Shown: one piece after another, positions 30,001-33,000 of the stretch | Layout: each line of letters opens with the position of its first letter | Position numbering within the stretch: position 1 is the first letter of the stretch | Source of the DNA: an uncultured Methanosarcinales archaeon | GTDB lineage: Archaea > Nanobdellota > Nanobdellia > Woesearchaeales > CAYSVS01 | Length of the DNA: 41,364 nucleotides | NCBI GenBank assembly: GCA_964434475.1 | Contig: CAYSVS010000006.1 | Span: 1 to 41,364 of the forward strand | Direction of reading: 5' to 3' | Program-made: the position numbers

Positions 30001-33000
30001 GTTTGTGATATGGATGCTATACTAAGCAAAAGGATATACAGAAAACCGCATAATTTGGGTAAAGCATCTGTCAGTATTAATTTAGATAATGGCAACAACT
30101 ATTGCTTCGCGTTTGCTGCAAGAGATGAGCAAGACAATCCTGAAGATATAAGGGATTATGCTTATGTGGTAGGGCCTGTAATAAAATGAACCCGCTGATA
30201 TTTTTATTGGTGATTTTTGTAATATTTGTGCTTTCTGCTATAGTCCAATATCTCAATATTATGTCTGGGGCATCTGAGCTTAAGACTCATTCGACAAGAT
30301 ACGAAACCTTTTTAGGTTATGGCAAAGAATCTGTGATGGATTCACTTGATGACAATGTGCTAAACCTTTTCAGACCAACGCAGTGGAAAATCTTGCTTTT
30401 GGTTATTGCGATGATTATAGAATTTCTTTTAGGTCAGCATTATATTTCTGAACACGGATTCAGATTGTTCTTTTCAGGAGCGGAAATAAGCTACAGCATC
30501 ATATTTGATGTAGTATCTATGGTGTCTGTTATATATGAAATATTTGTGCTGTATGTTTTGATATGTTTTGTTGTATTTTTGATAAGGTATGTTAAGAGAT
30601 AGGTTTTTGATTTATCTTTAATAATATATACTTTCTTATTTATTCTGCAATATAGCAAACTATTTAAAATAAGGATTTTTCTCTATTGTTTTAGGGGGTT
30701 GTTATTATGATAAAGATGTCTTTACTTGATATGAAAGAGAAAATAATAAAAGAAGCTAAAATAACTGAAGATGATCTTAATTCTAAGATAAAAAAGAAAA
30801 CAGAGCAATTGGCTGGTCTTGTAAGCGAGGAAGGAGCATGCCATATAATCGCAAATGAATTAGGAGTTAAGCTTTTTTCAGCTTCAGGCGGAAGGATGAA
30901 GATAAAGAACCTTTTGCCGGGTATGAAGAACTTTGAGCTTGCTGCCAAAGTTACAAGAAAGTTTGAGCCAAGAGAATTTGATACAGGCGAAAGGCAAGGA
31001 AGGGTTGGAAATATTATGGCTGGTGATGAGACTGGTCTTTTGAGAGTTGTTTTTTGGAACGATTATGTTGATAAGATGAATGATTTCAATGAAAATGATA
31101 TACTACTTATCAAAGATGCTTATATAAAAGATAATAACGGCAGAAAAGAGATACATCTGAATGATAGGTCTAACATAGAAGTAAATCCTGAAGGTGAAAC
31201 TGTAGAAGCGATGACATCTATGCCTGCTACAAGAAAAAAGTTAAAGGAACTGAAGGAAGATGAGTTTAATGTTGAAATTTTGGGTACAATAGTCCAGATG
31301 TTTGAACCAAGGTACTTTGAGGTTTGTCCAGAATGCGGTAAAAGGACAAGGCCGCAAGAAGGCAACAGATATGTATGTGAGCAGCATGGAGAGATAATAC
31401 CTAAGTTTTCTTATATAGTGAACGTTGTTATTGACGATGGTACAGATAGTATGAGAGTGGCATGCTTTAGGGATCAAGCTCAAAAGTTGCTTGGCAAGTC
31501 AGATGAAGAAGTGCTTCATTATAGGGATAATGTAGCTGATTTTGAAGATCTTAAGCAAGATATACTGGGCAATATTGTGAAAGTTATAGGAAGAGTTAAG
31601 AAAAACATTATGTTTGATAGGGTAGAATTCACAGCACAGCAGGTTGATGTTAACCCTAATCCTGAAGAAGAGATTAAAAGACTTAATTCTAATTGATGAT
31701 TGATTAACTATTTTTATTTTATTTTCAAAAAATATAAATACCATCTGTGCTTTTTGTATTATTGTGATATGGATAACTCATCTTGTATTTGGACTATTAT
31801 GCGGAATATTGTTTAAAGGATATGTTCACCTTAACATTTGGTATTATTATCCTATTGTTCTGTTTGCTGCATTGCTGCCTGATATAGATCATCCAGACAG
31901 TAAAGTAGGTAACAAGTTCGGTTTTTTTTCTAAATTCATAGAGAAGACATTTGGCCATAGAGGATTGTTTCATACGATCTACATTGCTATATTGTTTGCA
32001 TGGCTTATTTCTTTATTCTTTGCAAAGCAATATGCATATGCTTTTTTTATAGGTTATGTGTCGCATCTATTCATTGACGGCTTTACAAAGATGGGTATAA
32101 ATTTTTTGCATCCTTTGTCAACATTAAGATTGCATGGGTTTGTAGAGACAAGAAGTACGATGGAGTATCTGTTGCTTATATGTTTTGGTATATTGGTAGT
32201 TTATTTGATAGTTTAAATATCCTATATAACTTTTTTCTTGTCCAGTGCTTAAAACCCTTATTCTTGTCCAATTCTGCCTTTACAGCGTTTTTGCTACCAC
32301 TGGACACACTGGACAGGTGTGCGCGTGAGATATATAAAGGAGAGGTTCTTATGATATATTAACTCCCAAAAGCCTAAGAGTTCAAACAGCTTTTGTGAAA
32401 CAAGATGCGATAAGCAAGGAGGTGTTGTGAAATGGCAAATCAGCCTGAAAAAAAGATTAATGCTGGAGCAATCCAGGTAAGTGTTTGGAAAAACCAGACA
32501 CAAAAAGATGGAAAAACAAGCGAGTACAAGACAGTAAGTTTTGATAGACGCTATAAAGACAAACAAACAGGAGAATGGAAATCAACAAATTCTCTTAGGG
32601 TCAATGATATTCCTAAAGCAATAACTGCATTGACCAAAGCGTATGAGCATTTGATAATAAAAGAAGGTAATGATAATGCTTATACTGAAGAAGTTATAAT
32701 GGGATGAGGTGGTTATTATGTCAACTAAAGCTTTGAAAAAAAATGATACTTTACCTAAAAGTTTAAATAAGGATGAATGTGCAGAGGATATGGAAATGGA
32801 AGAAGATGTGAAATTATCGCTGGAACAAGATAATGCTGTAAAAGAGATGGCACTATCAGATTTGCCTGGTGTAGGTCCAGCAACAGTAGAAAAATTGAAT
32901 ACTGTGGGTTATACTGATCTTATGTCTGTGGCAGTGGCAACACCTGGCGAGCTTATAGATGCAACAGGCATGAGCCAAGCAGCTGCTAAGAAGATAATAG

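Follow-up and report, generated by a model that had tools for sequence, protein, structure and literature searches.

The locus analyzed here raises the question of why a short repeated word should stand in front of a recombinase gene in a DPANN archaeon, and which protein might read it. In the window (the whole stretch of DNA analyzed, 41,364 nucleotides of contig CAYSVS010000006.1 of the Woesearchaeales genome G000), a tandem repeat and a TATA box are located 5' of a small unnamed gene and radA. A preliminary description took the repeat for an exact 17-nt operator (window 32299-32315) of a damage-response regulon. To our knowledge, the repair genes of cultured archaea have mostly been found not to be jointly induced by damage. 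A word conserved ahead of the radA, hef, xpd, uvrA/B and nuclease genes in hundreds of DPANN genomes would make the first predicted SOS-type repair regulon in archaea, and such a clean sequence handle would be especially useful since these organisms cannot yet be grown. No published account was found either of the element or of a DNA-damage regulon in Woesearchaeota: none of the matches listed for ACTGGACA together with archaea concerned the element, and none of those listed joined Orc1-2 with DPANN, Woesearchaeota or Nanoarchaeota.

Architecture of the element in the window

The repeat ACTGGACACACTGGACA is better read as two direct copies of the 9-mer CACTGGACA (window 32298-32315), followed by a G+C-rich spacer and a TATA box (Table 1). 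In place of a palindromic operator lying over the promoter, as in the SOS system, a direct repeat or a single word is found upstream of the TATA box. The auxiliary inverted copy lies between the tandem, which begins 51 nt downstream of it, and a YdjM-like gene, whose stop is 23 nt before it. Similar upstream copies, either inverted or direct, are present 45-75 nt ahead of many other sites and include a perfect palindrome, CACTGGACA-N8-TGTCCAGTG, at C14:126-151. In the window the YdjM-like gene is the neighbor of the operon, and ydjM of E. coli belongs to the SOS genes.

Table 1. Elements and genes of the radA promoter region, in window coordinates
Feature	Position	Strand	Remark
Auxiliary inverted CACTGGACA (TGTCCAGTG on the + strand)	32239-32247	-	read from sequence
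Degenerate inverted copy TGTCCAATT	32265-32273	-	putative; spotted by eye
Distal CACTGGACA	32298-32306	+	second copy, specific to the lineage; about -61 to -53 relative to the predicted start of transcription
Proximal CACTGGACA	32307-32315	+	core element, conserved; about -52 to -44 relative to the predicted start of transcription
G+C-rich spacer GGTGTGCGCGTGAGA	32316-32330	+	final bases GTGAGA at the BRE position
TATA box TATATAAA	32331-32338	+	read from sequence
Conserved 5' leader TGAAACAAGATGCGATAAGCAAGGAGGTG	32396-32424	+	small GC-GAWA-GC hairpin and Shine-Dalgarno sequence
P0002 gene	32432-32707	+	first operon gene; 91-aa protein without a named family
radA (Rad51 family recombinase)	32709-33773	+	second operon gene; Pfam Rad51, E 2.6e-85

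Abundance and distribution

The genome comprises 1,500,564 bases in 148 contigs (33% G+C, 97% complete). Our recount of the 17-mer agreed with the preliminary description: nine exact copies, at the contig places that it had listed, and none with one mismatch, while a single copy with two mismatches and two copies with three were present. Chance as the origin of the tandem is excluded, because the nine exact 17-mers compare with about 4e-5 expected (4.3e-5 in a 0-order and 2.3e-5 in a second-order model) and the 28 copies of CACTGGACA with about 4; none of 100 shuffles of the window attained the observed count (up to three mismatches). All nine tandems face a gene and have a TATA-like box behind them, likewise as described before, and a tenth promoter carries a single copy of CACTGGACA. 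The 17-mer was also found in two congeners, with 6 exact copies in G001 and 13 in G002, plus one copy with one mismatch in each.

Beyond the genus the picture changes in one respect. The conserved unit is one CACTGGACA placed 12-15 nt upstream of the TATA box, while the exact 17-nt tandem is a peculiarity that this genus shares with only a few more; other genera show a second copy at a phase of 7 or 8 nt, a degenerate one or none. The composite CACTGGACA-N10-16-TWTAWA was present in 37 of 41 genomes of the order, with one match for the reversed control, and in 191 of 301 genomes of a phylum sample, with more than 927 matches against 9 for the control. By our own count from the table, these comprise 183 of 217 genomes of the same order (Woesearchaeota-type DPANN archaea) and 8 of 84 from other orders. 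Complete genomes of Nanobdellota have been announced (bioRxiv 10.64898/2026.05.13.725050). Hence, the earlier proposal holds as regards a cis element linked to the promoters of DNA-repair and recombination genes, the exact 17-nt tandem being replaced as the conserved unit by a single CACTGGACA that keeps a constant spacing to the TATA box. The distribution of the element, which had been left as a question, extends far beyond the genus. Matches of the 18-mer in bacterial genomes were single and had no TATA box, and were taken as chance or coding repeats.

The most constant place of the element is the one seen in the window: exact CACTGGACA precedes the P0002-radA operon in 26 of 30 genomes of the order, and one more has a tandem with a one-base variant. 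In sister orders, TTGACAT or GCTTGCCA tandems occupy the same place before P0002-radA. The missing exact word in these orders therefore says little, because other repeats seem to be used there.

Promoter geometry

The spacer between CACTGGACA and the TATA box measured 12-15 nt in 197 of 234 stored sites (mode 13; the sample was partly fetched with the motif itself), and the 9-mer always faced the gene. Among 209 sites examined, 161 were followed by an ORF of at least 80 aa, and in 60 of these the start codon lies 27-32 nt past the first TATA base, the geometry expected of leaderless archaeal mRNAs. From this spacing we infer that the motif promoters are probably working promoters. Their core is close to consensus (TATATAAA/TATTTAAA), and the TATA box is preceded by A at -3 and G at -6, which makes a good BRE by the criterion quoted in PMC5817253. 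The tRNA promoters of the same genome (n = 13) have A-rich BRE-like bases instead of the G+C-rich end of the spacer. A short non-palindromic motif directly upstream of the BRE/TATA, as in the damage-response elements of Sulfolobales, is thus what the sites display.

Genes behind the element

Pfam searches of the targets in the genome identified the Hef helicase, Rad51/RadA, XPD (DEAD_2/HBB), a radical SAM protein with HHH, an RNase_H_2 protein (RNase H-like superfamily) and two Bro-N proteins, among others. Hence, the Hef, RadA, XPD, radical SAM and Bro-N names given in the preliminary description were retained (the match of the radical SAM+HHH protein to NCBIfam TIGR03916 was below the cut-off), while its 'RecB-like nuclease' is the RNase_H_2 protein. 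Three other targets are a LAGLIDADG/HTH protein, a winged-helix-like protein of 160 aa (P0001) and an operon with a 62-aa protein, a P0002 paralogue and DUF4186; in this way the last operon encodes a relative of the small radA-linked protein. UvrA in the second congener and a Y-family (IMS-family) polymerase in G026 extend the list.

A wider survey covered 15 further families with 80 sites, for which 70 of 118 ORFs were scanned with Pfam. Its repair targets were five Hef, RadA, UvrA, UvrB, two Hel308-like proteins, Hjc and an AP endonuclease, accompanied by three radical SAM proteins (one with a photolyase), three RNase_H_2, three Cas4/PDDEXK, YhcG and RadC. Replication-type and other targets included two MCM, a Cdc6 paralogue and five Sua5/YrdC, while six Bro-N, seven LAGLIDADG and three integrases represented mobile elements. 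Sua5/YrdC counts among the non-repair targets, together with ribosomal protein S6e, a response regulator and DUF763, and about 17 of the 80 sites were without a clear ORF by a simple ORF caller. GyrA-like and primase-like genes were also noticed among the targets in other genera, from translations judged by eye outside the Pfam scan. In one genome (G021) a target was an HTH_3+Peptidase_M78 fusion, which is a target there and not a constant partner of the element. Taken over all motif sites, the gene content typical of an SOS response, i.e. Rad51/RadA, UvrA, UvrB and an IMS-family polymerase, is found, while proteins of the ups pili, cedA1 or tfb3 type were absent from the 32 + 70 proteins scanned behind them. 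Several unnamed families, namely P0002, the 55-62-aa protein, DUF4186 and DUF763, are flagged by this association as repair-linked.

The P0002-radA operon and its leader

The P0002-radA gene pair recurs in other families and orders, and P0002 is present in 253 of 301 genomes of the phylum sample. The leader of the operon is likewise conserved: in an alignment from 23 genomes the TGAAA, GCGA and AGCAAGGAGG stretches were largely kept, and two sequences retained the hairpin pair by two-sided changes. It was also present in other orders, and an Rfam search gave no relevant match. The modeled P0002 protein consists of four strands, a long helix and an acidic tail (mean pLDDT 84). A Pfam scan gave no match, only unnamed clusters were found in the Atlas, and structural comparison yielded nothing significant in Foldseek (best E 0.5, PC4 at rank 38 with E 1.5) and no clear match in VIA (best Z 5.1 for the uncharacterized H. 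pylori HP0035, Pur-alpha at Z 3.8). The topology of four strands and a helix may be akin to that of the upstream-element binders PC4, Pur-alpha and Whirly. The acidic tail and the invariant aromatic residues would fit a single-strand binding helper of RadA better than a regulator.

Mode of action

The element, its constant position, its conservation and the genes downstream of it are observed, while promoter activity, damage as the signal, the direction of regulation and the factor are inferred. Very probably, CACTGGACA is a real cis-regulatory element of a repair regulon. It may be the recognition site of a sequence-specific transcription factor that would sit just upstream of TFB on the BRE, and would unite genes of DNA repair, recombination and in part replication across Woesearchaeales in one regulon, which Bro-N, LAGLIDADG and integrase genes of mobile elements would have joined. 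In the window it would drive the operon of P0002 and RadA. From its fixed position the bound factor could act on the TFB/TBP complex, most likely as a damage-switched activator, by analogy with Orc1-2 at ANTTTC in Sulfolobus. Taken on its own, the choice of an activator over a repressor is only slightly favored. We have somewhat more trust in the explanation as a whole, which combines a predicted transcription factor site, a repair regulon, a damage-switched activator and an Orc1/Cdc6 protein as the candidate reader, and we regard it as the best available. DNA damage as the signal is predicted from the gene content; the sequencing runs containing the window stretch are exclusively DNA metagenomes.

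The main competitor is a true operator, where a repressor on CACTGGACA and the auxiliary copies would shut strong promoters until DNA is damaged, with a LexA-like logic and an unrelated protein. The strong, near-consensus core promoters with their BRE-like A at -3 and G at -6 speak for it and fit a repressed promoter better than an activator-dependent one; the auxiliary copies and the palindrome suggest cooperative binding or looping, and the recombinase, UvrA/B, Y-family polymerase and mobile-element genes of the regulon parallel bacterial SOS. However, repressor sites in archaea are mostly placed over the TATA box or the start site, and simple occlusion would not need a rigid spacing to the TATA box. 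Moreover, neither the LexA-type S24 peptidase (PF00717) nor the IrrE-type M78 peptidase (PF06114) was found in the genome at its 97% completeness, which ruled against a LexA-like or IrrE-like system. The site is located wholly upstream of the BRE/TATA, where the archaeal factors described in PMC5817253 and PMC6061795 activate, and 'operator' in the sense of a repressor site, as used in the preliminary description, would be the less probable reading. Overall, we consider repression unlikely.

A regulon tied to the cell cycle or replication instead of damage, like the eukaryotic G1/S regulons, appears improbable. It could account for the two MCM, the Orc1/Cdc6 paralogue and the GyrA-like and primase-like genes (the latter two judged by eye) among the targets in other genera, and an Orc1/Cdc6-type factor would provide a natural link to replication. 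But none of the ten targets in the genome itself is a replication gene, and the commonest targets are repair and recombination enzymes together with mobile-element genes, the typical passengers of a damage response. Furthermore, the one archaeal Orc1 paralogue that PMC6061795 describes in such a role responds to damage.

Candidate regulators

For the damage-switched activator, the best candidate would be a divergent, fast-evolving second Orc1/Cdc6 paralogue, encoded at C27:4466-5539, an assignment that we put forward tentatively. The replication initiator Orc1 of the genome is clear (match to Orc1-1 in the PDB with E 4.8e-105), while the paralogue matched Orc1-1 (2qby_A) with E 1.6e-26. It contains the AAA+ module with a Cdc6 lid (AAA_22, E 3e-13; Cdc6_lid, E 2.3e-11). 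The C-terminal winged helix (Cdc6_C) matched only the other copy, on contig C16, and was not found for the paralogue among the best 25 of 29 Pfam matches with E up to 0.1. Its gene is followed on the same strand, 368 nt past its end, by the motif promoter at C27:4098. A comparable neighborhood was observed in 30 of 80 other species, the element being located within 300 nt before the gene in 6 and within 1500 nt after it on the same strand in 25, with both in one; all 35 elements in these loci were on the strand of the gene and none on the opposite one. The phylogenetic profile of the paralogue follows the presence of the motif only imperfectly, which counts against it: judged by E-values, most genomes of sister orders without the motif had ortholog-level matches, and seven motif-positive genomes of the order had only paralogue-level ones.

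Two smaller proteins were considered as readers of the word, both with a very low probability. The winged-helix protein P0001 (contig C14) would read CACTGGACA and autoregulate, and it was favored initially from the tandem before its own gene, which is found in the genome and both congeners, with motif variants in G026 and G023. Exact CACTGGACA with a TATA box precedes the gene in 12 of 80 other species, often with a second upstream copy (the 18-mer in 1 of 80), and the model is a winged helix-turn-helix with Fur/Zur, MarR, SmtB and MotA as best Foldseek matches (E about 0.05, probability 1.0). It was disfavored by its phylogenetic profile, since P0001 occurs in 272 of 301 genomes, including by our own count about 73 of 84 from sister orders mostly without the motif and with equally strong scores, whereas it was not found in 14 genomes of the order that carry the motif, including all five of one genus. 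In addition, hardly any variation is seen in its putative recognition helix, while the repeat ahead of P0002-radA differs between orders.

Equally improbable is P0002 as the regulator of its own operon with radA, in analogy to lexA and recA at the center of SOS, possibly with direct recognition of single-stranded DNA. In favor of it, no target is more constant than its operon (26 of 30 exact), the protein diverges between orders as the repeat does (E about 1e-37 within the order and about 1e-17 outside), and its topology may resemble that of the upstream-element binders named above. Against this stand the lack of a significant structural match in Foldseek and VIA, the acidic tail and invariant aromatics, which suit a RadA single-strand helper better, and 11 motif-positive genomes of the order where P0002 was not found; neither its profile nor that of the Orc1/Cdc6 paralogue cleanly separates motif-positive from motif-negative genomes. 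An alternative basal factor acting on a special promoter was rejected, the genome having one TFB and one TBP gene by a search blind to a short TFB3-like protein without cyclin folds.

Extending the Orc1/Cdc6 proposal, one might imagine a whole DPANN order with an SOS-like regulon that, in contrast to the Sulfolobus response described in PMC5817253 and PMC6061795, has direct control of the core repair and recombination enzymes, where a fast-evolving Orc1/Cdc6 paralogue reads CACTGGACA beside TFB, word and factor drift together across the class, and mobile elements capture the element to sense damage of the host. We regard this wider picture as doubtful, a little more so than the candidate itself.

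Comparison with known systems

The element resembles the LexA box of bacterial SOS in that one conserved word stands before the recombinase, uvrA/uvrB, Y-family polymerase and mobile-element genes, and differs by the archaeal TATA/BRE promoter, the upstream non-palindromic site and a genome where no LexA-type peptidase was found. The radiation/desiccation response motif of Deinococcus is a palindrome bound by the XRE repressor DdrO, which is cleaved by the M78 peptidase IrrE. What the two share is a conserved motif of about 17 bp as the signature of a repair regulon; in contrast, the motif described here is not palindromic, and M78 peptidases were not found in the genome.

Ptr2 is one of the archaeal activators with a binding site immediately upstream of the BRE. 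The Pyrococcus factor PF1088 is described in PMC5817253 as binding at this place and recruiting TFB or TBP at promoters with a weak BRE. The position and the non-palindromic nature of the sites are shared with these activators, but here the BRE-like bases look good and the protein would be an unrelated one. A damage regulon that is run by an activator and not by LexA is represented by the mycobacterial PafBC (PMC8682763), which, unlike the system considered here, is bacterial and belongs to another protein family and promoter type.

The closest parallel is found in the Sulfolobales, where UV induction requires ANTTTC, a non-palindromic word located upstream of the BRE at -44 to -39 (PMC5817253), which is bound by Orc1-2 as an activator (PMC6061795). 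In both cases a short, oriented, non-palindromic motif is placed directly upstream of the BRE/TATA in co-regulated promoters, at nearly the same site (about -52 to -44 here), and a second fast-evolving Orc1/Cdc6 paralogue is present, which in Woesearchaeales is encoded beside motif promoters and is a putative counterpart of Orc1-2. The word differs, being CACTGGACA, often doubled, instead of ANTTTC, and so do the lineage, a DPANN order, and the targets. Here the element precedes the very enzymes of repair and recombination (RadA, Hef, XPD, UvrA/B), while for Sulfolobus, the one circuit worked out in PMC5817253 and PMC6061795, pili, DNA-import and tfb3 genes are named (ups pili genes, cedA1 and tfb3). 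Whether proteins of the Orc1-2 type also regulate damage responses outside the Sulfolobales is a question raised by the authors of PMC6061795, and a defined DNA site together with a defined protein makes this question testable in the DPANN archaea.

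The element in the window and in its genome

The genome to which the window belongs, G000 (1.50 Mb, 148 contigs, 33% G+C, 97% complete), falls into an order of the DPANN archaea with many small genomes (0.6-2.1 Mb); many records clearly belonging to the Woesearchaeota-type group bear the machine title 'uncultured Methanosarcinales archaeon'. The 17-mer described previously as an operator was present in G000 in nine exact copies against ~4e-5 expected under 0-order or 2nd-order models, all located where the preliminary description had placed them, each facing a gene and followed by a TATA-like box as it had claimed. 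The absence of one-mismatch variants was likewise confirmed, near-copies numbering 0 at one mismatch, 1 at two and 2 at three. The tandem arrangement also stood, but not its proposed 8-mer unit: since a C precedes 9/9 copies of the 17-mer, the repeat unit is the 9-mer CACTGGACA, found in 28 copies versus ~4 expected. A tenth promoter, with a single CACTGGACA, a 13-nt spacer and TATATAAA, precedes a second Bro-N gene.

Features in the window and on other contigs (C numbers) of the same genome
Feature	Position	Strand	Evidence or context
Tandem of two CACTGGACA, gapless	32298-32315	+	sequence read
17-mer of the preliminary description, ACTGGACACACTGGACA	32299-32315	+	sequence read
Spacer GGTGTGCGCGTGAGA	32316-32330	+	sequence read
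TATA box TATATAAA	32331-32338	+	sequence read
Inverted element copy TGTCCAGTG	32239-32247		sequence read
Degenerate inverted element copy	32265-32273		sequence read
P0002 leader TGAAAYAARAYGCGAWAGCAAGGAGG	32396-32424		same place in stored loci L233-L260, L460-L469
P0002, 91-aa ORF	32432-32707		downstream of tandem
radA	32709-33773		downstream of tandem; Pfam Rad51, E 2.6e-85
RPA-like gene (Rep_fac-A_C + OB fold)	30707-31696		upstream of P0002-radA promoter
YdjM-family membrane protein gene	31764-32216		directly upstream of P0002-radA promoter
Palindrome CACTGGACA-N8-TGTCCAGTG	C14:126-151		perfect; ~52 nt upstream of P0001 tandem
P0001 gene	C14:313-795		stored locus L014
Near-palindrome	C93:~2815-2831		equivalent position before RNase H-like gene
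P0002 paralogue	C27:3294-3557
62-aa protein gene	C27:3614-3802		first gene of the motif promoter after the Orc1/Cdc6 paralogue
Diverged Orc1/Cdc6 paralogue	C27:4466-5539		ends 368 nt upstream of motif promoter C27:4098, same strand
Tenth promoter, single element	C95:2317	-	before second Bro-N gene

The genes behind these promoters encode a Hef-type helicase, a LAGLIDADG/HTH protein, P0002 with RadA, the 160-aa P0001, a 62-aa protein with a P0002 paralogue and DUF4186, XPD, a radical SAM+HHH protein (TIGR03916-like, score under the cut-off), an RNase_H_2 protein and two Bro-N proteins; the RNase_H_2 assignment by Pfam replaces the RecB-like nuclease reported earlier. The 62-aa protein belongs to a family of 55-62 aa without a Pfam family (also in L012, L024 and L333), which ends in ...GFM(I/L/A)GY... 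and is followed either by the P0002 paralogue and DUF4186 or by Sua5/YrdC. A YdjM-like coding sequence likewise precedes P0002 in G005 and G032, as judged by eye; ydjM is an SOS gene in E. coli.

Distribution of the element

Allowing up to one mismatch, only 5 of the order's 41 genomes contained the 17-mer (9 copies in G000, 7 and 14 in its congeners G001 and G002, 3 in G026 and 1 in G036); the reversed control gave none. The tandem is local, and the general feature is a single 9-mer at a fixed position. Exact CACTGGACA was found upstream of the P0002-radA operon in 26/30 genomes of the order; G029 has CACTGGTCA twice in this place, and no element was found upstream of P0002 in G027 and G018. 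G040 has two P0002 copies, of which the one followed by radA carries the element and the other does not. The second copy is phased by 9 nt in G000-G002 and G036, by 8 nt in G006 and by 7 nt in, for example, G009, G014, G015, G017, G019 and G021, and is absent from, among others, G007, G008, G020, G022, G032, G033 and G035. The bases 5' of the core in other genera read CCATTAG (G039), CCACAACC (G011) or CCACTCCC (G014, G040).

Between the 9-mer and the A/T-rich box, 197 of the 234 distinct stored sites have a spacer of 12-15 nt (mode 13), a sample biased because the motif itself was used to fetch part of it. The composite CACTGGACA-N10-16-TWTAWA was present in 37/41 genomes of the order (reversed control, 1 match) and in 191 of the 301 genomes of a phylum-wide sample, with more than 927 matches versus 9 in the control. 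By our own tally this corresponds to 183/217 genomes of the same order and 8/84 of other orders, where real-looking sites were confined to two families; the unpublished genomes G262 and G263 were counted in the distribution tallies only. Several loci of G002 (L002, L007, L015, L021, L032, and partly L031 and L034) contain a ~45-nt module, CACTGGACATCCTGTCACT...CCTGGCGTCCAGTT, 20-70 nt upstream of the tandem, as though one composite promoter cassette had been duplicated inside this genome.

Genes behind the element in other genomes

In the first two site collections a TATA-like box was present at 94 of 138 distinct sites, and the commonest first genes at these 94 were P0002 (14 sites, with RadA next at 13) and Bro-N (13), then tyrosine recombinases, P0001, Hef, UvrA, LAGLIDADG and C5-methylase-like genes (several by eye). 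G002 added UvrA and two ORF6N genes, and G026 a Y-family polymerase. The 15-family set comprised 80 sites from 15 further genomes, picked from printed composite matches with the exclusion of P0002 sites already seen, and Pfam was run on 70 of its 118 called ORFs. Repair and nucleic acid functions included Hef-type helicase (5 sites), Hel308-like (2), Rad51/RadA, UvrA, UvrB, Hjc, AP_endonuc_2, YhcG nuclease and RadC (1 each), radical SAM (3, one then photolyase and one behind an integrase), RNase_H_2 (3), Cas4/PDDEXK (3), MCM (2) and Cdc6-type (1). The remaining sites had LAGLIDADG (7), Bro-N (6), Sua5/YrdC (5), integrase (3), DUF763 (2), other HTH proteins (2), and N6/N4 methylase, Schlafen/AlbA_2, HTH_3+Peptidase_M78 with DUF4411, ribosomal protein S6e and a response regulator (1 each); 11 had no family, and a simple ORF caller gave no clear ORF behind ~17 of the 80. 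From gene content only, we infer that the signal would be DNA damage; the sequencing runs found to contain this DNA included none of RNA.

P0002 and its leader

P0002 was present in 253/301 genomes of the phylum sample, and across most of the class its gene stands first, ahead of radA. Sequence searches against Pfam, NCBIfam and PDB gave no match; its predicted model (mean pLDDT 84) consists of four strands followed by a long helix, with a disordered, acidic C-terminal tail, and the family (~85-115 aa) has invariant W19, N21, G27, W49, D59 and P61. Comparison of the model with known folds by Foldseek and VIA yielded no clear match. Our guess is that it might be a single-strand binding helper of RadA. 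The leader is conserved in the order and in sister orders and forms a tiny GC-GAWA-GC hairpin immediately 5' of the Shine-Dalgarno sequence, the pair being preserved through two-sided changes in two sequences. It matched no Rfam family and may act in the control of translation, perhaps as a site for P0002 itself.

Promoter geometry and candidate regulators

At 161 of 209 distinct stored sites an ORF of 80 aa or longer began within 330 nt, and at 60 of these 161 the start codon lay 27-32 nt past the TATA hexamer's first base. This is the position of archaeal transcription starts, as is generally known (PMC5817253, in extract), and the mRNAs at these 60 sites would therefore be leaderless. Counted from the start codon (+1), the positions are approximately -52 to -44 for the core 9-mer and -61 to -53 for the second copy; the P0002 operon differs by its conserved ~70-nt leader. 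Because the site is oriented, lies immediately 5' of the BRE position and is at a constant distance from the TATA box, a DNA-bound protein is called for that would contact the TFB/TBP complex from the element. Factors at this position are activators in the available part of PMC5817253 (PF1088; the ANTTTC element), and by analogy the element-bound factor would on balance be an activator as well, against which it speaks that the core promoters appear strong and that extra element copies lie 45-75 nt upstream at many sites.

G000 has one TFB, one TBP and two Orc1/Cdc6 genes, and searches of this 97% complete genome revealed neither a LexA-like nor an IrrE-like peptidase. One Orc1/Cdc6 is of the initiator type (PDB Orc1-1, E 4.8e-105; Cdc6_C present), and the other is strongly diverged (E 1.6e-26; AAA_22 + Cdc6_lid), with no Cdc6_C recognised. 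The neighbourhood of this paralogue and a motif promoter recurred in stored loci of G001, G002, G015, G017, G020, G022 and G023, the last with an additional element 53 nt before the paralogue gene. Among 80 further species the element was beside the paralogue gene in 30, lying up to 300 nt before it in 6 and, on the same strand, up to 1500 nt behind it in 25 (both in one), and 35/35 elements at these loci were on the gene's strand. The distribution of this candidate matches that of the motif imperfectly: most genomes of sister orders have an orthologue, and the matches in 7 motif-positive genomes were of paralogue level only. The family of G073 and G079 lacks the motif, the paralogue and P0002 and possesses P0001.

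Ten genomes of other orders retain the P0002-radA pair together with its leader, and in some of these the place of the element is taken by other tandems, lying ~13-15 nt before the TATA box, as read by eye in a small sample: TTGACAT twice (G140, L469), GCTTGCCA twice (G278, L465), a TGGAC/TGGCA pair (G182, L464) and CACTTGACA (G188, L463). This suggests that word and factor drift together, which a diverging factor fits better than the nearly invariant P0001. The Orc1/Cdc6 paralogue is put forward, tentatively, as a possible reader of the 9-mer.

P0001, predicted to be a winged helix and bearing the tandem before its gene in the genus of G000, is disfavoured in this role by its presence in motif-less orders (272/301 genomes, including most motif-less sister-order genomes), by not being found in 14 motif-positive genomes of the order, and by an element before its gene in only 12/80 other species; we take it for a facultative target of the regulon. 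It has no Pfam family and is 55-86% identical over more than 5000 clusters. At L004 (G026) and L314 (G021) the element precedes a 160-172-aa protein with '...GLLPRK(R/K)GST(D/E)...', a stretch recalling the 'GLLQPGDSRD' region of P0001, of which it may be a paralogue.

Comparison with known systems

No published account of the 9-mer or of such a DPANN regulon was found, the supplementary files of the Sulfolobus papers lying outside the scope of the search. In Sulfolobus, Orc1-2 footprints on the ANTTTC element and is required for induction (PMC6061795, in extract). The present element would work alike, although its sequence and targets differ. The bacterial SOS regulon is similar in gene content and differs in sequence, targets and proteins. 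Because of these differences, the element and its genes belong to neither system.
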